Shown: in pieces, positions 1,606-48,082 of the stretch
Layout of the letters: every line of letters starts with the position of its first letter
Position numbering within the stretch: position 1 is the stretch's first letter
Source: Enterococcus phage 9181
DNA: 64,000 nucleotides
Reading direction: 5' to 3' (one strand)
Sequence record: MT939240.1
Position numbers and translations under genes: made by a program
The notes under the pieces: generated by a model
Databases searched by the model: none
Seen by the model: the letters and a program-made list of their open reading frames with translations, nothing else
What the model was told of the DNA's origin: nothing

Positions 1606-1932
1606 GAGGACTAAATGAAATACGAATGTGAGATATCTCCCAGCTACGAAAGCCTTACAAGGTTTATGAATTTTTACGACATTGCACCAGAACAAATTAT
1701 CACTATTGGGTACGACCATAATAACGACTCGGTTAGCATGATTTATATTAAGGATGGGAGATAAGCTAGTGGAAAACATTTTATTAATTAGTATCGATGT
1801 TAAAACAGGCAAGGCACAGGGAGTGTGGAACGGAGAAGGCGAGACTTACGATTCTGTAGAAGAAACAAAAGAGCTGTTACAGACGCTTATTGAAGAGTTA
1901 CCGTTAAAGGATAAGGAGGAGTTGTTCGAATA

Positions 1933-2469
1933 ATGCAAGAACGTTGGTGCGGAGTTTTAGGGTTGGAAAAATACTATGAAGTTTCCGACCGTGGGAGAAT
2001 ACGAACGGTCACTAGAAGAGACTCTCGTGGTCAGTTACGCCCCTCTAAATTTCTTAAGCCTTCTGGGAGATACTTGGCAACTACTTGTAGTATAGATGGA
2101 GGAAAACATTTCAGACTGTATGTACACAAAGAAGTATTGAGAGCCTTTTGCGGAGAAAGACCTGATGGAATGTTCATCAACCACATCAACGGTAATAAAC
2201 ATGATAACCGATTGGATAACCTTGAATATGTTACTCCTAAAGAGAATAATGAACATGCTATGAGGAATGGTTTGACTAGTAAAAATTCCGTCGTAAAGAT
2301 AACTCAACTAGATACAGGAATAATTTCACACCACCTATCAAAGAGAAAGGCATCCAAGTTTCTCAAAAAATACCCGTCCTATATAGCTGAAATATCCAGA
2401 GGATTGTACAAAAACACTAATCTAATAATAGAGGAGATACCATATGACAATACACTGCGTTATATATAG
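1933..2469 (+). CDS. HNH homing endonuclease (NUMOD4-like N-terminus plus HNH_3 core)
   Basis: YEVSDRGRIRTV N-terminal motif; HKEV...HINGNKHDNRLDNLEYVT HNH motif with His/Asn residues. Confidence 0.7.
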   Translation: MQERWCGVLGLEKYYEVSDRGRIRTVTRRDSRGQLRPSKFLKPSGRYLATTCSIDGGKHFRLYVHKEVLRAFCGERPDGMFINHINGNKHDNRLDNLEYVTPKENNEHAMRNGLTSKNSVVKITQLDTGIISHHLSKRKASKFLKKYPSYIAEISRGLYKNTNLIIEEIPYDNTLRYI

Positions 2470-2905: not shown

Positions 2906-2916
2906 TCTTTTAAATG

Positions 2917-2940
2917 GAGGCTTGACAAAGCCTCTTTTTT
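2917..2940 (+). terminator. intrinsic terminator hairpin (gaggct-tgacaa-agcctc followed by TTTTTT) whose loop carries the -35 of the next promoter
   Basis: Inverted repeat gaggct/agcctc followed by a T6 run, read directly from the sequence. Confidence 0.55.
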
Positions 2941-2950
2941 ATGCTATATT
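2922..2950 (+). promoter_or_regulatory. sigma-A-type promoter (TTGACA, 17-nt spacer, TATATT)
   Basis: Consensus -35 at 2922-2927 and -10 at 2945-2950. Confidence 0.6.
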
Positions 2951-5937: not shown

Positions 5938-6494
5938 GTAAAAAAGAAAGAACTTTAGCAAATTTATCAAACGGTGGAATTATCCGTTGCATCAGTCCTA
6001 TAAGAGGATTTAAAGAAGATTTATTATACAGAGCTAAAGACGAATCAGGCTGGCTTGTAACAAACTATGACAAGATGCAAGACCTTACCTTAGTTACACC
6101 AGATGGAGAGGTAGGTACTGTAGGTGGGGTGCTTCTCTCAAAATATTTTGAACCTTATGAGTTTCAAGCAGATGATTTAGTCATACTAGAGAAACTTTTC
6201 AAAGATATTAAAGTATCGTCAGGACACCTATTGGATCAAGAATGCTACAAAGTATCATGTGTTGATACGTCGGGAGTTGTGATTATTGAGGATACAAATA
6301 ATAACGTCTGTGGTGTAAGCAAGACTTGTCTAGCACACTATGACGGAACCCAGAAAGCATTACGTGATCCTGAATATTATTGTGAACTTGCACGGCTGTA
6401 CAATAACTTAGCTATCAACCTTAAGACAGCCCACGAAGCATCGCTTAAAATTGAGGATATTCGCAAATCCATAGACGAACACCTAACTAAATAA
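5934..6494 (+). CDS. hypothetical protein
   Basis: ATGA overlap with the upstream gene; 186 aa ORF with coding-like composition. Confidence 0.45.
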   Translation: MSKKERTLANLSNGGIIRCISPIRGFKEDLLYRAKDESGWLVTNYDKMQDLTLVTPDGEVGTVGGVLLSKYFEPYEFQADDLVILEKLFKDIKVSSGHLLDQECYKVSCVDTSGVVIIEDTNNNVCGVSKTCLAHYDGTQKALRDPEYYCELARLYNNLAINLKTAHEASLKIEDIRKSIDEHLTK

Positions 6495-6499
6495 ATCCC

Positions 6500-6530
6500 A
6501 AGAAACCCTTGACAATTTCAGGGGTTTTTT
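6500..6530 (+). terminator. intrinsic terminator (ccct...aggg hairpin plus T-run) overlapping the promoter -35
   Basis: aaaCCCTtgacaatttcAGGGGtttttt. Confidence 0.55.
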
Positions 6531-6538
6531 GATATACT
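6509..6538 (+). promoter_or_regulatory. sigma-A-type promoter (TTGACA, 18-nt spacer, TATACT)
   Basis: -35 at 6509-6514 and -10 at 6533-6538. Confidence 0.6.
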
Positions 6539-7130: not shown

Positions 7131-9751
7131 TGCTTAAGGTTAACCTATCACTTGGAGACGAGTCTAAAGTAGACCCTCATGAAGCGATTGCAAAGGCGAC
7201 AAAAGCTAAACAAATACCAACTATCGAAGAATCATGGGAAAAGATTCTAGGAATGAAGAACTCTAAGAAAGACTTAGAACGCCTGAATACCGTTAAGGAG
7301 CAGATGGAACTAGGTAATTTAGGGCGTGAGGAAGACAAGTTACATAAGGCTTTCTCGAAAGCCGAAGCACTACGTCTTTATAAACGCTACCAAGAGTCCA
7401 TGCGTGAACAACGCTTAAAGGAAATGTTCACTAAGGACTTAGATAAGTACCCATTACTAACAGACATTGACCTGATTAACGACTATGTATATAAGGCTAC
7501 ACACGCTGATGGTATTCCATTACTTAACGCCGATCATATGGTTTCTCTCGATACCGAGACGGTTGGTAATGACGGTGGTGTTGACAAGTACCGTGAAAAG
7601 ATAGCAGGGTGGTCACTAACCTTTTACAAAAATGGTGTTGAATACAATGGTTACATTCCAATTGAACACTATCAGGAAGTTGAACCAGAGGTGTGGGAAC
7701 TAGACCCACGTTGTGTAGACTATGATAAAGCCATTGGAGCTCTTTCTAGCATCCTTATCTCAGGTGTGGATACAGTCTGGCACAACGCCACATTTGACTT
7801 GGGTTTAATCTATGCTTTAACAGGAGTTGAACCTAAAGGAACCGTTCATGACACGCTTATTATTATGCACTTATTGAAAGAAGACTTGATGTCGTACGCT
7901 TTGAAAACACTGGCAACACAGTACCTGAACATCCCATCAGACACCTTCTCTGAAATGTTTGGTAAGAACGCCAAGTCCGCATACATTCCACTAGATGCCT
8001 TCCGTTGGTACGCTTCTAAAGATACTTGGGTTGGTTACAAGCTATTAGAATGGCAAGTTAAAATACTTTCTAAACCTCAATTCAGCAATATATTGAAGGC
8101 TTATTTACACATTGAAGCACCATGTATTAAGACCACTTTCCACACCGAGCGAACAGGGTTCGTAATGGACATGGAAGAAGTAGAACGACAACACGAGGAA
8201 AGTGTAGAACGTATCGCTGAATTAGAAAAGCGTTTAGCAGATCGTTTTGGAGACGTTAACTTCGGTTCCCCAGCACAGTTACAAAAGATGCTTTACTTTG
8301 ACAACGACTGGAGTCAATATGTTACCAAGGATCACAAGAGTATTTTAGATGGTCATGAAAGCTTTGATGAATGGGGTATTAGTAATAATGGTAAGTTCGC
8401 AATGACTAACTCAGGAAGCATTATACTTGACCCTGTAGTTGTTACTACGAACGAAGCGCTTGACTACCAAGGTAAAATTACTACCAAGACACTTGTCAAG
8501 CCTAAAAATAGCCAGTTAAAACTATCTGCTGACTCAGACGCTTTAAAAGCTATTGCAAAACATGCCCCAGAGCTTAGGGACTTGCTTGAACTTAAGGACT
8601 TGACTAAGCATTTAACATCATTTGTAGAGAAGATTCCAACCATGGTTTCTCCTGATGGACGATTACATGGAGACTTTAAACAAAGTAGCACTGTAACTCT
8701 TCGATACACTGCAAGCAATCCTAATTTACAACAGCAACCATACAAGGCTCGCTTAATGTTTACGGCACCAGAAGGGCAACTTATCCTAAGTGCCGATTTC
8801 TCGCAACAAGAACCTCGTCTAGCCACTCATATGAGTAATTGTAAGGCGTTGGCAGAACTTTACCGAGACGCACGTGACTTGTACTCGGAGACAGCCTCTT
8901 CAATCTTTAACAAGCCTCTCGAAGAGTGTGGGGATGGCTCCATTTACCGTAAGCAAACAAAAGTCGTTGTACTTGCCGTTTTATATGGAATGTCACACTT
9001 CACTCTAGCAGGTATCCTAGGCATTTCTAATGATGAAGGCAAAGAGTTGATAGACAACTTCTATAAGACGTATCCAGAGCTACATAAATGGATTAAGAAC
9101 AACGAGAAGGAAGTAGCTAAGCAGAAGTACGTTGAGACACCTTGGGGTACTCGTAGACGTTTTACTGATGTTAACTTTAACCTTCCTAAGAAGCCTTGGG
9201 GAGCTATGACAGAAGAAGATCGAAGAGCACGTTCAAACATCAACAGAGCCCTTCGCCAAGCTACTAATGCAAAGGTTCAGACCGCCGCTGCTATGCAAAC
9301 TAAACAAGTTATGGTGGCTGCTGATAATCTTTTAGAAGAGCTTAATAAAGCACGTGGCAAAGAGGTATTCCAATTCCTCGCCTTGGTGCATGATGAGATT
9401 CTGTACCTTGTTCCAGAAGATGTCACCAAAGATGAGGTAGAGTCTATTCGTGATGTAATGATAAATACCGTCAAACTGATTGTTCCATCTAAGACTGATA
9501 TGGCTTTGGGTAAATGTTGGGGAACACTTCAAGAGATAGATTACATTGACCAAGACGTTTACTTGGTAGGTAGCACAAAAGCCAACCAGAAGACTGAGTG
9601 GACAGAAGGTATTGGGGAAGTAGTTAGTTGGAAGAAACTTTCTAGCCACCAACAAGGAGCCGTTTACGTTGATGGTAATGACACTGGTCTACGCCTTTCA
9701 GAAAAGGAATGGGCAAACTTCATTTCAAAAGTTTATAGCAAGAAAAAATAA
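7130..9751 (+). CDS. polA: DNA polymerase I-like (family A) with 3'-5' proofreading exonuclease domain
   Basis: Exo I LDTETVG; pol motif A LSADFSQQEPR, motif B RKQTKVVVLAVLYG, motif C LVHDEIL; 873 aa. Confidence 0.9.
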   Translation: MLKVNLSLGDESKVDPHEAIAKATKAKQIPTIEESWEKILGMKNSKKDLERLNTVKEQMELGNLGREEDKLHKAFSKAEALRLYKRYQESMREQRLKEMFTKDLDKYPLLTDIDLINDYVYKATHADGIPLLNADHMVSLDTETVGNDGGVDKYREKIAGWSLTFYKNGVEYNGYIPIEHYQEVEPEVWELDPRCVDYDKAIGALSSILISGVDTVWHNATFDLGLIYALTGVEPKGTVHDTLIIMHLLKEDLMSYALKTLATQYLNIPSDTFSEMFGKNAKSAYIPLDAFRWYASKDTWVGYKLLEWQVKILSKPQFSNILKAYLHIEAPCIKTTFHTERTGFVMDMEEVERQHEESVERIAELEKRLADRFGDVNFGSPAQLQKMLYFDNDWSQYVTKDHKSILDGHESFDEWGISNNGKFAMTNSGSIILDPVVVTTNEALDYQGKITTKTLVKPKNSQLKLSADSDALKAIAKHAPELRDLLELKDLTKHLTSFVEKIPTMVSPDGRLHGDFKQSSTVTLRYTASNPNLQQQPYKARLMFTAPEGQLILSADFSQQEPRLATHMSNCKALAELYRDARDLYSETASSIFNKPLEECGDGSIYRKQTKVVVLAVLYGMSHFTLAGILGISNDEGKELIDNFYKTYPELHKWIKNNEKEVAKQKYVETPWGTRRRFTDVNFNLPKKPWGAMTEEDRRARSNINRALRQATNAKVQTAAAMQTKQVMVAADNLLEELNKARGKEVFQFLALVHDEILYLVPEDVTKDEVESIRDVMINTVKLIVPSKTDMALGKCWGTLQEIDYIDQDVYLVGSTKANQKTEWTEGIGEVVSWKKLSSHQQGAVYVDGNDTGLRLSEKEWANFISKVYSKKK

Positions 9752-9755
9752 GGGG

Positions 9756-9785
9756 TTGACAATATACCCCTTCCCATGCTATATT
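9756..9785 (+). promoter_or_regulatory. sigma-A-type promoter (TTGACA, 18-nt spacer, TATATT) inside a gggg/cccc hairpin
   Basis: -35 at 9756-9761 and -10 at 9780-9785. Confidence 0.55.
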
Positions 9786-10947: not shown

Positions 10948-10983
10948 TCAGGGGTATAACTTTGACACAAAGCCTTCTAATGC

Positions 10984-11012
10984 TTGACATTAGGGGCTTT
11001 TTGTGCTATAAT
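10984..11012 (+). promoter_or_regulatory. sigma-A-type promoter (TTGACA, 17-nt spacer, TATAAT)
   Basis: Perfect consensus hexamers, preceded by a hairpin and T-run. Confidence 0.6.
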
Positions 11013-11041: not shown

Positions 11042-11389
11042 TTGATTGAACAGTGGAGATACCTATATTACCAAGGGGTACTTTCAGATACATACGAAGT
11101 AAGTTCCTTTGGCAATATACGAAACGCCAAGAGCAAGAAGCTATTAAAACCACAGTACACCGGCTATGCCCACGTACGCATCAACCACAACGGACGAGTT
11201 CAAAACATACGACTTCATCGAGCAGTTGCTTCAACCTTTCTTCGAAAACTTGACACCGACAGCGTAGTAAACCACATTAACAATGATAAAACAGATAACC
11301 GTGTATGCAACTTAGAATGGATTTCCCAAGCCATGAACGTTCGCAACTCACTAATGACTAGGGGGATTTTAAATGAAGAAGCCATCTAA
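11042..11389 (+). CDS. HNH homing endonuclease
   Basis: TTG start after AGGAGG; N-terminal YEVSSFGNIRN motif; HRAV...NHINNDKTDNRVCNLEW HNH motif. Confidence 0.65.
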   Translation: MIEQWRYLYYQGVLSDTYEVSSFGNIRNAKSKKLLKPQYTGYAHVRINHNGRVQNIRLHRAVASTFLRKLDTDSVVNHINNDKTDNRVCNLEWISQAMNVRNSLMTRGILNEEAI

Positions 11390-12754: not shown

Positions 12755-13314
12755 GATATTTAGGACTTGATGTGAGCTCGGTTGCCACGGGTGTTGCGGT
12801 GGTGGACAGAGCCCCTGATGGCTCCCTTACCAAGGTAGTAACAGACGTCATCACAACTTCCTCTAAGCAAGAGATTGGCAAGCGCCTAGTGCTCTTTGCA
12901 GAAACACTTCAAGGATTCTTCGATGAATATCAACCAGATTATGTGATCCGTGAGGAAACCATTAACAACCGTGCTTCTAACGCCATCTTATTTAAGTTCT
13001 TAGGAGTGGCTCAATTCCTAGCATGCAACAATGGTCATCAAAAGACTTACGAGTATTATCCTACAACTATCAAGAAGGAAGTCACAGGCGCTGGCAGAGC
13101 TTCTAAGGAGACTGTTGCCAAGTGTGCACAACAATACTTTAGAGAAGACTTATCGGAGCTCACAGACGACGAGACGGACGCTATTGCATCTATCTTAACA
13201 CACCTTTCCAAAACATCCATCATAACAACTGTAGAAGATTATGACAACCTACAGGAACACGACTCAGAACAACAACAACTTGTAGAGGGGTACGAGAATG
13301 GGACTATCCAATAG
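12748..13314 (+). CDS. ruvC: RuvC-like Holliday junction resolvase
   Basis: N-terminal YLGLDVSSVATGVAVVD, comparable to RuvC ILGIDPGSRVTGYGV; 188 aa. Confidence 0.75.
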   Translation: MVRYLGLDVSSVATGVAVVDRAPDGSLTKVVTDVITTSSKQEIGKRLVLFAETLQGFFDEYQPDYVIREETINNRASNAILFKFLGVAQFLACNNGHQKTYEYYPTTIKKEVTGAGRASKETVAKCAQQYFREDLSELTDDETDAIASILTHLSKTSIITTVEDYDNLQEHDSEQQQLVEGYENGTIQ

Positions 13315-14594: not shown

Positions 14595-14599
14595 TCTAA

Positions 14600-14628
14600 A
14601 AATCCCTTGACAAGTTCAGGGGGTTTTT
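14600..14628 (+). terminator. intrinsic terminator (ccct...aggg hairpin plus T-run) overlapping the promoter
   Basis: aatCCCTtgacaagttcAGGGggttttt. Confidence 0.55.
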
Positions 14629-14636
14629 GCTATACT
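14607..14636 (+). promoter_or_regulatory. sigma-A-type promoter (TTGACA, 18-nt spacer, TATACT)
   Basis: Near-identical copy of the 6509 promoter module. Confidence 0.6.
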
Positions 14637-15119: not shown

Positions 15120-15926
15120 TTGATTATGATTTTAACATTGGCAGGCGTAATCGGAGTTGGTAAATCTTCGATGACACAATTATTAGCGGACTTATTAGAC
15201 ACCGAGGCGGTGTATGAGCCCGTTGATAACAATCCATTTTTAAAGAAATTCTATGAGGACAAAAGTAAATACGGGTTCTTATTCCAGATAGACATGCTAT
15301 CTAAAAGGTTTGAAATGATTCAGACAGCCATGAGCGTTAACAATGGCATCTTGGATCGTTCCGTGTACGAGGATAGCATCTTCTTAGATCAACTCTATCA
15401 AGAAGGTCAAGTAACAGACCTTGAACAAGAGGTTTACCACAACCTATTAAACCGCATGCTGAAAGAATTGGAGCCACTTCCTAAGAAGTCTCCAGACTTA
15501 ATGATTGTTCTTAACTGCACGTTTGATGAAGAAATTAGACGTATCAATTCACGAGCTAGAGAGTTTGAAAAGGTGGAAGAAGGCACTGAGCTATATGAGT
15601 ACTTCAAACTCCATCACGAGAACTATCAGAAGTGGATTGAGAAAGACTTGAACTTCCCCAAAATAGTCTTGGACGTCACTAATAAAGATTTTGTAAATAA
15701 CCCCAAACACCAACTAGAATTGTTGACAACTATCTTGGTAAAGCTTAACGAAGTAGGTGCATTGACAACTTTAGACACGGTACGTAAACTATGTGAGATC
15801 AATTCAGTACCTTGGGACAAAGACAATGCCCAAGCTTATGCCATGTACTTGTACAACAAACACGAAGGCAAGATGCCTTTCCACGAGCTTAGCCAATTCA
15901 CTGACAACACTTCATTATATGAATAA
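15120..15926 (+). CDS. deoxynucleoside kinase (dNK family)
   Basis: P-loop LAGVIGVGKSS; LDRSVYED (the DRS motif); 268 aa. Confidence 0.75.
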   Translation: MIMILTLAGVIGVGKSSMTQLLADLLDTEAVYEPVDNNPFLKKFYEDKSKYGFLFQIDMLSKRFEMIQTAMSVNNGILDRSVYEDSIFLDQLYQEGQVTDLEQEVYHNLLNRMLKELEPLPKKSPDLMIVLNCTFDEEIRRINSRAREFEKVEEGTELYEYFKLHHENYQKWIEKDLNFPKIVLDVTNKDFVNNPKHQLELLTTILVKLNEVGALTTLDTVRKLCEINSVPWDKDNAQAYAMYLYNKHEGKMPFHELSQFTDNTSLYE

Positions 15927-15982
15927 GCGCCATTTAACAGCGCATATGCAACATTAAAATTATTGGAAGAAGGTATTTAATT

Positions 15983-16714: not shown

Positions 16715-16720
16715 TAACAG

Positions 16721-16750
16721 AGGCTTGGGAATTATCCCAAGTCTTTTTAA
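16721..16750 (+). terminator. intrinsic terminator (cttggga-at-tcccaag plus T-run)
   Basis: Hairpin read directly from the sequence. Confidence 0.55.
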
Positions 16751-16758
16751 ATTTGTGC

Positions 16759-16788
16759 TTGACAGTTTTACTGTGGGCGTGGTATATT
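16759..16788 (+). promoter_or_regulatory. sigma-A-type promoter (TTGACA, 18-nt spacer, TGgTATATT)
   Basis: -35 at 16759-16764 and -10 at 16783-16788. Confidence 0.55.
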
Positions 16789-19146: not shown

Positions 19147-19658
19147 TGACAAGATATGCTTTTCATATAGGTGACAAGGTTATGCACAGGGTTCATACAG
19201 GAAAGCCTTACTTATTAATGGAGATAGCAGAAGAGATTGACACTAATGATCCACACGAGAGAGTTAGTATAAAGTATTTGACAATGCCCGATAAGATTGT
19301 TTACCTAGAAGTAGCAGATTTAGTGCTTGCTACTGAAAAAGAAGACGGTAGTTACGAAGCTGTTAAAGTAGAACCAGTTGACGAAAGTATTTTTGAGTCT
19401 ATGCCAACAGAAGACTGTTACAAGGTGCCAGTACCTCGTGAAATGGCTCGTTTCTTAGATCAATACAAAGCTCTGGATATTGACTCATTAGACACCATCA
19501 TTGACGCTTGGTTAGAAAGTCCTTATTGGGATGAGTATATGGAAAGCAAGGCTAGTGACCACTTGCGTTGGGACTACTTGTTGGTAGATGCCGTTCGCAA
19601 AGGATATACGATCTCAAAAGTATTTGATAAAGATTATATGGAGGAGTATTATCTATGA
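19143..19658 (+). CDS. hypothetical protein
   Basis: ATGA overlap; 171 aa. Confidence 0.4.
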   Translation: MMTRYAFHIGDKVMHRVHTGKPYLLMEIAEEIDTNDPHERVSIKYLTMPDKIVYLEVADLVLATEKEDGSYEAVKVEPVDESIFESMPTEDCYKVPVPREMARFLDQYKALDIDSLDTIIDAWLESPYWDEYMESKASDHLRWDYLLVDAVRKGYTISKVFDKDYMEEYYL

Positions 19659-20104
19659 GAGAACCTATTTTCAGAGTGTATGTGAACAAGGTGGGGTATT
19701 TAGCCCCTCCCCAATTCCTCATTACACCACGTGGGGACGTTTTGCTCAACAATGGGGACGACACTTGGTCATACCCTCCGCAAGACCTTGCCTACGTACT
19801 TGAACGAAGACTTAGTACAACCAGTGTAAACGGCTCCGAGGTTATCTTTGAAGGAGACCTCGTTAAACTTATTCCTGAGACTTTTGATAGTGTTGAACCA
19901 ACCTTTGGATATGCTGCCATACGAGACGGTAAGGAAGGTATTGTACTTGAGGGAGACATAGACTTTATCGGACTCCATGACAACGGCGCTGATCGCAAGC
20001 TAGAGAAGCTTGGTAAGAATACTACGTGGGGCGAGCCTTACGATATTGAAAAGATTATTAAAGACTTTTATGAAAGAGAGGGTATAGATACCGTTGGGAA
20101 TTAA
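19655..20104 (+). CDS. hypothetical protein
   Basis: ATGA overlap; 149 aa. Confidence 0.4.
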   Translation: MREPIFRVYVNKVGYLAPPQFLITPRGDVLLNNGDDTWSYPPQDLAYVLERRLSTTSVNGSEVIFEGDLVKLIPETFDSVEPTFGYAAIRDGKEGIVLEGDIDFIGLHDNGADRKLEKLGKNTTWGEPYDIEKIIKDFYEREGIDTVGN

Positions 20105-20697: not shown

Positions 20698-20754
20698 CGC
20701 CTGCTCCTATTAGCGTTTGCGAAAGATTTTTCTATCTCTTAAATTTCTCGATTA

Positions 20755-20832
20755 TTTTCCTAACCTTCAAGTTTTTAAAAAATTTTCCTAACCTTCAAGT
20801 TTTTAAAAAATTTTCCTAACCTTCAAATTTTC
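20755..20832. repeat. tandem direct repeat, 2.7 copies of the 28 bp unit TTTTCCTAACCTTCAAGTTTTTAAAAAA (iteron-like)
   Basis: Exact 28-bp units at 20755-20782 and 20783-20810, then a degenerate third copy. Confidence 0.85.
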
Positions 20833-21182: not shown

Positions 21183-21317
21183 CCCCAGATTTTTGAAGAA
21201 CTTCACTTAAAATATAACAAAAACATCCCCAGAATTTTGCATACACTCCCCCAGATTTTAAAAGAAAATCACATAAAACATAGTAGTGGTGTGTGCGTGT
21301 GTGCCCCCAGATTTTTT
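21183..21317. repeat. four dispersed copies of a CCCC(C)AGA(A/T)TTTT motif, with a (GT)n tract at 21286-21303
   Basis: Copies at 21183, 21227, 21248 and 21304; the last two extend to about 30 bp of similarity (ccccagatttt..aaaa..cacataaaac). Confidence 0.8.
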
Positions 21318-21697
21318 AAAAAACACACATAAAACGTAATGAAAAACACTTACTTGAAAAGCTATCAAAATAACACTTTTTAAGTCAAAATTAAAGGAAA
21401 AAAATGCCCCTTTCCAGATCAATAAAATAACGAACTTCCTACCGAAAACATTAAAACCTTTAAAAGCGCCCTATTTTGCACACGTAAAAAAGCCTTGAAA
21501 GCCTTGATGTTATTGGGTTTGTGGCTGTTTTTAGTGTCCAATTTGTAAAAGTTTCTACTATTAAAAGCCACAAAAAAGAACGCCAAAAAACTTTTTAGGG
21601 AAAATAAGAGAAAACTCTTGTATTTATTTTCGATATGTATATAATAAAGAGTGTAGAGAACAACAAAACAAAAATAACAGCAAAAAGGGGGTTTTGG

Positions 21698-22091: not shown

Positions 22092-22141
22092 AGTCAAAAG
22101 GTTATAAAAAACTAACTTATAAAAAGGGGTTTTCAAAAATG
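22092..22141 (+). repeat. conserved leader repeat copy A (AGTCAAAAGGTTATAAAAAACTAACTTATAAAAAGGGGTTTTCAAAAATG)
   Basis: About 45 bp, nearly identical to 24774-24821 and, for the 3' 30 bp, to 22532-22564. Confidence 0.85.
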
Positions 22142-22546
22142 AAAATTATTAAAACAGTAGAAAAACTTATTGAACGTGCAGAAAGAAAAGGCGTCGCAAC
22201 TTTAAATAGAAAAGTAAATCAAGGTTACGGCGTTTATTACACTAGTGAAGTTTATCGAGTGGAAAAAGAGGGCAATATTTTCACGCTTTACCACTACGAA
22301 ACAAAAACATGCCAGATTGACACAGCAACAGAGGAAATTTTGTATGTTTATGGTGAAAGCGTAAGCGATGCGGATAGCATTTTTACTTTTTTACATTATT
22401 TCGATATCGTGCTATCGTTTGGCTATAAACCAGTAAACGGTGGGTTTTATGCCAGCGTTAACGGTAAACAAATATTTATAGATGACTTTGACCGATTGGA
22501 AAACTTCACCAAAGCAATTAAAAAAGAAATTAAAACTAACTTATAA
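22139..22546 (+). CDS. hypothetical protein
   Basis: Follows leader repeat A; 135 aa. Confidence 0.5.
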   Translation: MKIIKTVEKLIERAERKGVATLNRKVNQGYGVYYTSEVYRVEKEGNIFTLYHYETKTCQIDTATEEILYVYGESVSDADSIFTFLHYFDIVLSFGYKPVNGGFYASVNGKQIFIDDFDRLENFTKAIKKEIKTNL

Positions 22547-22564
22547 AAAGGAGTTTTCAAAATG
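22532..22564 (+). repeat. conserved leader repeat copy B
   Basis: AAAACTAACTTATAAAAAGGAGTTTTCAAAATG, overlapping the stop of the upstream gene. Confidence 0.85.
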
Positions 22565-23029
22565 AAAAAACTAACAAAAAACGAACAACATCAAAATGCA
22601 ATCGAAGAGGCAACTCAAAGACTTATCAAAAAAGTGAATGATGTTATTAATAGTCTTTCACAAGATGAAAAATTCTATACACTTTTAAATCTATCTCAGC
22701 AAGTTAACTCTTATGATTGTTCACTTGACACCTGTATCGAACCGATTTCATTTATTGATGACTATCTTGCAGAAATGCCTTTTCTGGAAGCATTACAAAA
22801 AATAGACATGGATAATTTTGACCCATTAGATGATTATCTAATCATGACTATCTATGGTATTGAATCGGCGGACGAGGCAAAAGCCTTAGAAGCTCTCGAA
22901 TTAATACAAGATGAAATAGTAGAGGGAACTATTTTAAATTGGGAACATATTTATTATTATGATATCAATGAAAATATAGTTAACCTCATCAACAAATTTT
23001 ATGAACTACTTGAAAGCAAAGAGGGGTAA
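22562..23029 (+). CDS. acidic hypothetical protein
   Basis: 155 aa; N-terminus MKKLT shared with 24819 at the nucleotide level. Confidence 0.5.
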   Translation: MKKLTKNEQHQNAIEEATQRLIKKVNDVINSLSQDEKFYTLLNLSQQVNSYDCSLDTCIEPISFIDDYLAEMPFLEALQKIDMDNFDPLDDYLIMTIYGIESADEAKALEALELIQDEIVEGTILNWEHIYYYDINENIVNLINKFYELLESKEG

Positions 23030-24538: not shown

Positions 24539-24773
24539 AATGAAAAAAGCAAACATTCAAACAAAACTCGAAAAACTTTGGTTAACTTATGTAATACAGC
24601 CCGAAAAGGTTCGTAACGAGCTATCTTTTACGGATTGGGTTTGTGTCGATAAGGATTGGCTAGTGGAAGAAAGAGAAAGACAAGCGAGCGTCAAGGCAAC
24701 CAACTAAAAAAAACTAGAGAGGTTGGCAAGTTATACTTGTAAGCCTCTTTTTAATATGCTAATATAAAGGAGT

Positions 24774-24821
24774 AGTCAAAGAGCTATAAAAACTAACTTA
24801 TAAAAAGGGGTTTTCAAAATG
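24774..24821 (+). repeat. conserved leader repeat copy C
   Basis: AGTCAAAGAGCTATAAAAACTAACTTATAAAAAGGGGTTTTCAAAATG. Confidence 0.85.
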
Positions 24822-25268
24822 AAAAAACTAACAACGCTAATCATTATTACACTGGGAACGGTTCTGGCAACCTTTGCCACACCTCAAGAAACAAAGGCGG
24901 ACACACTAAACGAATACACGGGAACGGCGTTCGCAAAAACTTTTAAAGTTGAAATGAATAAAAAAGAATACTTGCTAGCGATTGGGCAATCTGATTTTTA
25001 TAGCTTCATACCTATGGAAAAAGCGAAGGAATTGGATATAAAAGAAGGACATATCTATAATATGTATTTTATGCGTGATAGTTATGAAGTATTTGCGATA
25101 GTTGACTATTCGGCGCCTCAATTTAAAGAGGGTAAAGACATCAAAGCACTACTTAACAACAATAAGAATTTCACGAAAGAGAATATCAAAGCAACAATCA
25201 AGGCGGAAGAAGATAACGCTATTCAGTGGGACTTAGGTATTACAATGGACAAGATAGCAAGCTTATAA
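24819..25268 (+). CDS. secreted protein with Sec signal peptide
   Basis: MKKLTTLIIITLGTVLATFATPQETKA|DT signal peptide; 149 aa; follows leader repeat C. Confidence 0.5.
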   Translation: MKKLTTLIIITLGTVLATFATPQETKADTLNEYTGTAFAKTFKVEMNKKEYLLAIGQSDFYSFIPMEKAKELDIKEGHIYNMYFMRDSYEVFAIVDYSAPQFKEGKDIKALLNNNKNFTKENIKATIKAEEDNAIQWDLGITMDKIASL

Positions 25269-25289: not shown

Positions 25290-25318
25290 GAGGGGCGTTT
25301 GATACGCCTCTTTTTTAT
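25290..25318 (+). terminator. intrinsic terminator (gaggcg-tttgatac-gcctc plus T6)
   Basis: Read directly from the sequence. Confidence 0.6.
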
Positions 25319-27235: not shown

Positions 27236-27265
27236 ATTATACAGTATCAAAAGGGTTTCTGTCAA
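27236..27265 (-). promoter_or_regulatory. sigma-A-type promoter (minus strand: TTGACA, 18-nt spacer, TATAAT)
   Basis: Reverse complement: cttgacagaaacccttttgatactgtataat. Confidence 0.55.
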
Positions 27266-27298
27266 GCACAAAAAAGACACCCTTAAGGTGCCTCTTGG

Positions 27299-28530: not shown

Positions 28531-28652
28531 GTAACGTCCTCCTTAAGGGTGGCGTTGACCACCGCTTTGTATAATACTAGTTTACCACCCATTATGGGAA
28601 TCTGTCAATACCTTATATAAAAAAGACGTTCTTTCGAACGCCTCTGTAAATC

Positions 28653-30597: not shown

Positions 30598-30627
30598 ATC
30601 TTACCATAGCTGCAGGGAAACTGTCAA
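30598..30627 (-). promoter_or_regulatory. sigma-A-type promoter (minus strand: TTGACA, 18-nt spacer, TAAGAT)
   Basis: Reverse complement: ttgacagtttccctgcagctatggtaagat. Confidence 0.5.
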
Positions 30628-30923
30628 TAACCAAAATAAAAAAACTCCATGCACAAATTGCACAGAGCTTTCCTTTAGACTTTATATGTTCTTTGTATAA
30701 GCTTTGGTAAAGGATTGTTACAAGCGCTTGGTATAGGTGTAGTTAATGGGATAGGTATTAAGCACTTATCAGTAAATGGAAAAGTGTAAGGAGCGAAGCT
30801 CCTAGCGATCTTTGATCGCTTAGAGAAGCATCTTAAAACCTCTAAAACCATTATACATCACATGGGTATCCCTTGTCAAGCATTAGAGGCTGTTTTTAAG
30901 TAATCTTAAGAAATTCTTAATAA

Positions 30924-36077: not shown

Positions 36078-36107
36078 ATCATACCATATACACTAAATAT
36101 CTGTCAA
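36078..36107 (-). promoter_or_regulatory. sigma-A-type promoter (minus strand: TTGACA, 18-nt spacer, TATGAT)
   Basis: Reverse complement: ttgacagatatttagtgtatatggtatgat. Confidence 0.55.
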
Positions 36108-36148
36108 CAACTTTTCAATAAAAAAGACACCCTTTCGGATGTCCTTTG

Positions 36149-38479: not shown

Positions 38480-38509
38480 ATCATACCATATACATCGGAA
38501 AAGTGTCAA
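38480..38509 (-). promoter_or_regulatory. sigma-A-type promoter (minus strand: TTGACA, 18-nt spacer, TATGAT)
   Basis: Reverse complement: ttgacacttttccgatgtatatggtatgat. Confidence 0.55.
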
Positions 38510-48006: not shown

Positions 48007-48016
48007 TAACATAATG

Positions 48017-48046
48017 AGCCTTGCCCACAGGGGTGGGGCTTTTATT
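48017..48046 (+). terminator. intrinsic terminator (gccttgccc-acag-gggtggggc plus T-run)
   Basis: Read directly from the sequence. Confidence 0.5.
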
Positions 48047-48053
48047 TTTAAGC

Positions 48054-48082
48054 TTGACAGTTAGCCTTTTGTGTGCTATAAT
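48054..48082 (+). promoter_or_regulatory. sigma-A-type promoter inside the morphogenesis block (TTGACA, 17-nt spacer, TATAAT)
   Basis: Perfect consensus hexamers. Confidence 0.55.

Follow-up and report, generated by a model that had tools for sequence, protein, structure and literature searches.

Putative composite terminator-promoter cassettes between the replication genes of Enterococcus phage 9181

How is one transcript ended and the next begun where fewer than a hundred nucleotides separate two phage genes? The question is raised by a stretch of 64,000 nucleotides from Enterococcus phage 9181 (sequence record MT939240.1; this whole stretch is called the window below), the first ~25 kb of which form a plus-strand cluster that includes genes for an RNA ligase, a DnaC-like loader, a DnaB helicase, a DNA polymerase and HNH endonucleases. 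An earlier note, made from the letters of this DNA, had pointed to five intergenic sites in the cluster at which an early promoter appeared to lie within the terminator hairpin of the gene upstream. We consider it likely that these sites are composite cassettes, each combining an intrinsic terminator with a sigma-A promoter, that would split the cluster into transcription units of ~1.2-3.6 kb. It is the neighbouring genes (DnaC-like loader, DnaB helicase, DNA polymerase) and nothing else that suggest an early timing for the promoters.

Anatomy of the five sites and a possible mechanism

A near-consensus promoter is present at each of the five sites, where TTGACA, a spacer of 17-18 nt and a consensus -10 had been claimed and were found at 5/5, with a TG at -15/-14 in every case (Table 1). 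All five have 11-12 of the 12 hexamer positions in agreement with the consensus in addition to the TG, and promoters of this quality (at least 11/12 plus TG) number 11 in the window, against 0.2 expected from first-order Markov simulations. At the modules the -10 lies 27-36 nt from the start of the downstream gene, which has a ribosome-binding site. The spacers that hold the modules are 65-94 nt long and run from the stop codon of a same-strand open reading frame (ORF) on one side to the ribosome-binding site of the next gene on the other. The hairpins begin 0-21 nt past the upstream stop codons, and the stem of module 3 overlaps the stop codon of the DNA polymerase gene.

Folding places the -35 at the apex of a predicted RNA hairpin at each of the five sites, with stems of 7-14 pairs and loops of 4-5 nt at sites 1, 2, 4 and 5 and of 9 nt at site 3. 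Measured against dinucleotide shuffles, the four full sites (1, 2, 4 and 5) have fold z-scores from -3.7 to -5.1, and at these sites the stem is followed directly by T6, T6, T5 and T5, respectively. The GC-rich inverted repeat with a T-run behind it, which the earlier note had described for all five sites, thus holds for four of them; at 9750-9785 the stem is followed by CCCATGC and the fold is the weakest of the five, and we regard this site as a predicted promoter with a hairpin and probably not a terminator. Nor does the hexamer sit wholly in the loop, as had been proposed: it is at the apex in all five hairpins, and there it straddles loop and stem and is partly paired. At site 1 the TT of the -35 is paired and GACA forms the loop, at sites 2 and 5 TTGA lies in the stem, and at site 4 the last CA is paired. 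The proposal that a single stretch of ~40 bp serves as both terminator and next promoter likewise fits the geometry of four of the five sites, site 3 being without a T-run.

The stems of the different modules are unlike one another (GGAGGCTT, CCCTTGA, AAGGGGT and CTAATG), while pairing is maintained in all. A-rich runs precede the 5' arms (e.g. AAGAAA at 6500-6505 and AAAAAT at 14598-14603). A simple terminator scan lists only 2916-2935 and 10974-10996, that is, sites 1 and 4; at the other two full sites, 2 and 5, pairing between the T-run and the A-tract upstream lets the longest stem swallow the tail, which hides the terminator from such a scan. Rfam yielded no family match anywhere in the window.

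Termination and initiation at these sites, and their efficiency, we infer from this geometry together with established knowledge of intrinsic termination and of sigma-70-type promoters. In the upstream RNA, the GC-rich hairpin and its U5-U6 tail would act as an intrinsic terminator, the transcript being released ~7-9 nt past the stem, near -15 of the next promoter, and keeping a protective 3' hairpin. As duplex DNA, the same ~40 bp would form a near-consensus promoter for host sigma-A with an extended -10. The new transcript would start ~7 nt past the -10, ~15 nt beyond the end of the upstream RNA, and because it would begin downstream of the hairpin it could not be stopped by it. With a 17-nt spacer, the predicted layout has the 5' arm at about -43 to -34, the loop at about -33 to -30, the 3' arm at -29 to -22 and the U-tract at -21 to -16. 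The two signals would fit together because each occupies positions that the other leaves free: the loop of the terminator, free in sequence, could hold (TT)GACA, and the spacer of the promoter, nearly free, could hold the 3' arm. The U-tract would merge into the T-rich TRTG motif (-17 to -14) of Gram-positive extended -10 promoters, and the A-tract ahead of the 5' arm would sit at the position of an UP element.

Pairing against chance, and conservation in relatives and beyond

Complementarity around the -35 was assessed on the 19 strongest promoters of the window by looking for a hairpin with its loop over the -35 and a stem of at least 5 bp, of which 3 or more are G-C pairs. The control exchanged upstream flanks among promoters, which keeps positional composition and gives an unbiased test of pairing. 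Such a hairpin is present at 6/19 promoters, compared with 1.34 +/- 0.99 after flank swaps, and 0.05% of 2000 swaps reached six. The six promoters are the five sites and a doubtful intragenic one at 13247 on the minus strand.

The same design is widely distributed. We scanned IMG/VR, and GTDB with one genome per species, for TTGACA-N8-TTTTT-RTGY-TAT, a pattern that is conditioned on a T5 spacer and requires no hairpin; the samples analysed are the first 120 rows of the scans, not random draws, and the fractions are sample estimates. A hairpin over the -35 was found in 35 of the 115 usable IMG/VR matches listed (flank swaps, 6.0 +/- 2.2) and in 11 of the 121 bacterial matches listed (flank swaps, 2.1 +/- 1.5), so that among the matches listed the viral fraction exceeds the bacterial one ~3-fold (Fisher p = 3e-5). 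For 31 of the 35 hairpin-bearing IMG/VR loci listed, no protein in common with the window was detectable. Of such unrelated contigs, one (L033) has the T4-like Methylophilales phage Melnitz as a relative, another (L052) has only weak matches, to Lactococcus, Streptococcus and Staphylococcus phages, and a third (L071) gave no match among known phages. Across 98 distinct modules the loops are mostly 3-5 nt long, GACA being the commonest, in which case the TT of the -35 is paired, and a T-run directly past the stem recurs in the modules of unrelated phages. Of the hairpin-bearing IMG/VR promoters 72% have a same-strand ORF upstream, against 58% in the comparison, a weak difference under a crude ORF rule that we do not use as evidence. 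This sampling suggests that a -35 placed at a hairpin apex is common across phage contigs.

Stronger evidence than the flank swaps comes from relatives, among which the modules keep their place while their stems change. Four phages of Enterococcus hirae, 68-72 kb in size and with EH93P1 and EH802P2 among them (OP172804-OP172807), match the window at ~92% identity. More distantly, the replication genes of the window resemble their counterparts in Saphexavirus phages such as SAP6, where patches of the DNA are ~65-68% identical. All five modules are kept in place in L008, a 72-kb IMG/VR contig whose DNA polymerase is 70% identical. There, the stem of site 1 reads GGAGAGC/GCTCTCT where the window has GGAGGC/GCCTCT: both arms have changed and pairing is preserved. 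Modules 1 and 4 are conserved in EH93P1 and EH802P2, and module 4 also in L008; the hairpin of module 3 is present in L008 and lost in EH93P1 and EH802P2. SAP6 and IMG/VR relatives have 4-7 modules per locus with different stems. In SAP6 several of them stand at syntenic places (past the primase gene, ahead of HNH, and on either side of the DNA polymerase gene), and the one just past the DNA polymerase gene (24214) has a T-run, unlike window site 3. EC99P1 has two modules with other stems again. Further stems in SAP6-type loci are GAGGC/GCCTC, GGGGC/GCCC, GAGAGGCC/GGTCTCTC and GAAGCC/GGCTTC. That pairing is conserved while the sequence of the stem varies favours a role for the structure and disfavours an operator bound by a protein.

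Related arrangements in the window and in other systems

The five modules are not the only places in the window where terminators and promoters meet. At six more strong promoters a canonical terminator stands apart from the promoter, its stem ending 6-17 nt ahead of the -35 (Table 1), and altogether 11 of the 19 strongest promoters overlap or adjoin a terminator; the overlapping arrangement is one end of a continuum with these tandem variants. A degenerate overlapping module at 24718-24765 has a 3' half that is 78% identical to the 3' half of module 1 (repeat family D7). The terminator that closes the plus-strand cluster (25290-25312) is not followed by a -10, and thus a promoter is not a by-product of every terminator here.

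Table 1. Coordinates of the overlapping modules, the tandem terminator-promoter variants and the degenerate module in the window. Folding energies and z-scores (dinucleotide shuffles) are given for the five sites.
Feature	Span	Strand	Hairpin or terminator	T-run	-35	-10	Promoter	Other signals	Upstream ORF stop	Downstream gene	Fold (kcal/mol)	z
Module 1	2916-2950	+	2916-2935: 5' arm GGAGGCTT, loop GACA, 3' arm AAGCCTCT	2935-2940	2922-2927	2945-2950	TTGACA-17-TATATT (2922-2950)	TG 2942-2943; predicted start ~2957	2905	DnaC-like gene, start 2986	-12.6	-3.7
Module 2	6499-6538	+	GC core CCCTTGA (6506-6512) with TCAGGGG (6518-6524), loop CAATT; A/T extension to 6499 and 6531	6525-6530	6509-6514	6533-6538	TTGACA-18-TATACT (6509-6538)		6494	start 6576	-18.7	-5.1
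Module 3 (incomplete)	9750-9785	+	AAGGGGT (9750-9756) with ACCCCTT (9766-9772), 9-nt loop	none	9756-9761	9780-9785	TTGACA-18-TATATT (9756-9785)		9749-9751 (DNA polymerase)		-9.6	-1.8
Module 4	10969-11012	+	bulged, 10969-11000: GCCT-T-CTAATG, loop CTTGA, CATTAG-GGGC	10998-11002	10984-10989	11007-11012	TTGACA-17-TATAAT (10984-11012)		10947	HNH endonuclease, 11042-11389	-16.4	-4.3
Module 5	14597-14636	+	GC core TCCCTTGA (14603-14610) with TCAGGGGG (14616-14623), loop CAAGT; A/T extension to 14597 and 14629	14624-14628	14607-14612	14631-14636	TTGACA-18-TATACT (14607-14636)		14594	start 14665	-16.0	-4.0
Tandem variant	16719-16788	+	16719-16746		16759-16764 (12 nt past stem)	16783-16788						
Tandem variant	48016-48082	+	48016-48041		48054-48059	48077-48082						
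Tandem variant	27236-27296	-	27296-27272		27265-27260 (6 nt past stem)	27241-27236						
Tandem variant	28579-28645	-	28645-28622		28608-28603	28584-28579						
Tandem variant	30598-30674	-	30674-30638		30627-30622	30603-30598						
Tandem variant	36078-36147	-	~36147-36122 (GGACATCC, loop GAAA, GGGTGTCT)	present	36107-36102	36083-36078						
Degenerate overlapping module	24718-24765	+	branched, AGAGG...CCTCT; read by eye	TTTTT	24737-24742	24760-24765	weak -35 TTGTAA, 17-nt spacer, TAATAT	TG in spacer		24819-25268		

Composite elements of this kind have been described in T4-type phages as promoter-early stem-loops (PeSLs), in which a strong sigma-70-like promoter is combined with an AT-rich stretch upstream of it and with a G/C stem-loop that may lie between the boxes, over the -35 or -10, or upstream or downstream of the promoter (Arbiol et al. 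2010, PMC2839356; Comeau et al. 2014, PMC4122927). Both promoter and terminator activity of PeSLs were demonstrated with lacZ fusions (PMC2839356), and recombination between copies shuffles genes (PMC2839356; PMC4122927). The window modules resemble PeSLs in being intergenic cassettes that fill the space between a stop codon and the ribosome-binding site that follows, in having a near-consensus host promoter of sigma-70 type (TTGACA-N17-TATAAT in RB49/phi1) with an AT-rich stretch upstream, and in the G/C stem-loop over the -35, which is one of five PeSL subclasses; the PeSL nt-1 type, A3-4G3-loop-C3T3-4, much resembles the window stems. PeSLs occur in many copies per genome, which show up in self-comparison, and the window has five overlapping and six tandem copies. 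PeSLs also adjoin gene insertions, deletions or replacements between related phages, and the breaks of homology between the window and L008 at modules 2 and 5 may be of that sort. There are also differences. The window belongs to a Saphexavirus-related Enterococcus phage of ~72 kb that would use Gram-positive sigma-A, not to a T4-type myovirus; its modules lie between core replication genes, whereas PeSLs lie in ORFan-rich hyperplastic regions; and its copies resemble one another far less, 88% over 40 nt being reached by modules 2 and 5 alone, where PeSLs are alike over ~100 bp. Mini-circles and recombination between copies are features of PeSLs, while the window modules are known as sequence, and the window promoters carry a Gram-positive TRTG extended -10 that merges with the U-tract.

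In Salmonella, too, terminators overlap the promoter of the next same-strand unit, and these overlaps have been kept across long evolutionary distances, as has the design of the window modules (Brandis 2019, PMC6735719). The Salmonella cases are chromosomal ribosomal and translation operons, and that of tufB involves regulation by Rho and NusG. At tufB-secE, initiation at the promoter fell when more polymerase ran over the overlapped terminator (PMC6735719). A 2026 preprint announces, in its title and the opening of its abstract, that promoter-terminator coupling is widespread in bacteria (bioRxiv 10.64898/2026.08.19.745784), for which a term count returned no instance of the word 'bacteriophage'. 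The ordinary tandem order of terminator and promoter, of which the window has six, similarly ends one unit and starts the next within a short intergenic spacer; it differs in that the signals stand side by side and are not interleaved, the stem ending 6-17 nt before the -35 and the T-tract lying at the UP-element position. The modules are a genuine, conserved feature of the sequence that the earlier note had for the most part read correctly; they belong to a kind that is already described in phages and bacteria, and would work like PeSLs without having all PeSL features. Our literature search found no paper describing such modules in Enterococcus phages and none on the promoters or terminators of Saphexavirus or SAP6; the papers that it found on promoters embedded in terminators mostly concern riboswitches.

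Do the modules also delimit genes that are exchanged? The window and L008 are homologous from module 2 as far as the -10 hexamer of module 5, with different genes beyond, and the genes that follow module 3 vary between the two. No indels were seen at the modules in comparison with the closest relatives, EH93P1 and EH802P2. The only modules that come out as repeats are 2 and 5, with 88% identity over 40 nt, and P78 and module 1, with 71% over 51 nt. The breaks of homology, together with the apparent half-module at 30879 described below, are weak hints of PeSL-like gene shuffling. Because homology with the relative breaks at module edges, it is conceivable that the cassettes let genes be swapped together with their own controls, as PeSLs do, and we put this forward more weakly than termination and initiation at the sites.

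Other differences between the window and its relatives lie elsewhere. Compared with position 8724 of the window, L008 has ~1.1 kb inserted within its DNA polymerase gene (L008 11565-12652), possibly an intron or intein, or the insertion of a homing endonuclease. EH93P1 has a gene for an I-HmuI-like HNH endonuclease (19427-19964) that is absent from the window (15910-15971), and ~710 nt of the window (1643-2353, vs EH93P1 6001-6006) occur in the window only.

The minus-strand promoters at 38509, 36107 and 35161 share GTATATGGTAT(G/A)AT ahead of and through the -10 and may form a separate promoter class; other minus-strand promoters use TGGTA, and the plus-strand modules TGCTA or TGATA. Also on the minus strand, 30632-30879 may specify a small RNA: ~210 nt past a consensus promoter (TTGACA-18-TATAAT, -35 at 30879) comes a strong terminator (30674-30638), with no credible ORF or ribosome-binding site between them, an RNA fold z of -3.5 and 92% conservation in the four E. 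hirae (EH) phages. Its promoter (30862-30879) has GCCTCTAATGCTTGACA (17 nt) in common with site 4 of L008 (L008 14610-14631) and matches window site 4 (10973-10989) at 16/17, divergence starting right after the -35; from its sequence it looks like half a module, possibly left by a crossover in the loop. An ORF-poor stretch of ~1.4 kb (20715-20826, 21183-21345) holds three 28-nt tandem units of TTTTCCTAACCTTCAAGTTTTTAAAAAA along with CCCCAGATTTT, which occurs four times at conserved intervals; an origin with iterons is one possibility, a packaging site another. A 57-nt leader with ribosome-binding site and start (AAAACTAACTTATAAAAAGGxGTTTTCAAAATGAAAAAACT) occurs three times in front of small plus-strand genes, at 22097-22153, 22521-22577 and 24778-24834, the copies being 70-91% identical.

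Punctuation, coupling and other readings

The likeliest function of the modules is, we think, plain punctuation: partial or full termination and a fresh, strong start in minimal space. Several points weigh against this reading or narrow it. Site 3 is without a U-tract, and in EH93P1 and EH802P2 its hairpin is gone and the promoter retained. The hairpins are of moderate strength only (-9.6 to -18.7 kcal/mol), so that termination may be partial. The two functions may also interfere, because a polymerase bound at the promoter would stand in the way of an incoming one and keep it from the hairpin. As to gene exchange, homology breaks are to be expected at any intergenic site, since insertions are tolerated there, and the likeness between copies makes easy homologous recombination feasible for modules 2 and 5 only. 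The literature search turned up no RNA-end data for the window phage or its relatives.

Could the hairpins be due to chance? It could be that the GC-rich flanks of strong promoters merely happen to be complementary, and 3.7% of random window positions do carry a hairpin of the kind scored; yet the flank-swap controls were exceeded by 4-13 standard deviations, the orthologues show compensated changes and the placement after stop codons recurs. Chance complementarity is ruled out by these controls and by the comparison of orthologues, and we leave it practically no probability. An inverted repeat centred on the -35 is also the classic layout of an operator, here for a dimeric repressor of phage or host, and an annotated transcriptional regulator adjoins one SAP6 module. 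The arms, however, have no sequence in common across the modules of one genome: among the 98 modules there are 51 different 6-nt arm tops, and complementarity is all that is kept. An operator would have no use for a T-run behind the repeat, and the same design is found in contigs without proteins in common with the window phage. We reject the operator as very improbable. Hairpin promoters of the type used by the N4 virion polymerase were dropped as a candidate, the sites being plain double-stranded sigma-A consensus promoters with 17-18 nt spacing. It is harder to dismiss the thought that the promoters are real and the hairpins ineffective as terminators, serving instead as 3'-end stabilizers after processing or as recombination hotspots, or being left over from the origin of the cassettes. 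The hairpin of site 3 is without a U-tract in L008 as well as in the window, the half-module at 30879 (minus strand) shares its 17 nt with L008 site 4 as if by a crossover in the loop, and PeSL crossovers in RB49 have been mapped to the loop (PMC2839356 / PMC4122927). Even so, we find this quite doubtful, given that four sites have the canonical set of a GC stem of 7-13 bp, a loop of 4-5 nt and U5-U6, that a T-run straight after the stem recurs in the modules of unrelated phages, and that a PeSL stem-loop terminated as well as rrnB T1 (PMC2839356 / PMC4122927).

A different question is whether the overlap was selected for a coupling of termination and initiation, and not for compactness alone. 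In a positive form, a polymerase that terminates inside the promoter, with sigma retained or rebound, would restart on the next unit; in a negative form, upstream traffic would occlude the promoter, so that downstream initiation would track upstream load. By the geometry of the sequence, release at about -15 would put the terminating enzyme over roughly -32 to +3, and single-molecule work has shown that the polymerase usually remains on the DNA after intrinsic termination and that reinitiation at a downstream same-sense promoter is possible, more often with added sigma (PMC6978380). The Salmonella overlap, with less initiation at higher load on the terminator (PMC6735719), speaks for the negative form, and by that precedent a promoter access that depends on read-through is plausible; this had been suggested in the earlier note, as had a possible resetting of transcription between genes. 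The ~3-fold higher frequency of the design in viral than in bacterial matches listed (Fisher p = 3e-5) would agree with selection for coupling, these samples being again first rows and not random draws. However, the sequence fixes neither the sign nor the size of any such effect, exact overlap is not required, as the six window promoters with a separate terminator 6-17 nt upstream make clear, and compaction by itself could explain the overlap. We give coupling a small chance, and consider rather improbable its more specific version, a hand-over device in which the polymerase would release the upstream RNA on a consensus promoter and restart with sigma-A without leaving the phage DNA. If that were true, host polymerase would be held along the early and middle phage genes, and the ~3-fold higher viral frequency among the matches listed would reflect selection for polymerase capture.

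Returning to punctuation by composite cassettes, these stretches of 40 bp would mark the boundaries of transcription units in a group of Enterococcus phages that is poorly annotated and includes candidates for therapy. They would also carry the PeSL idea beyond T4-type phages, whose hosts are Gram-negative, into a phage lineage that is unrelated and Gram-positive. As compact natural templates, the four full modules lend themselves to asking whether terminating inside a promoter helps or hinders re-initiation, and they may provide small bifunctional parts for Gram-positive synthetic biology.

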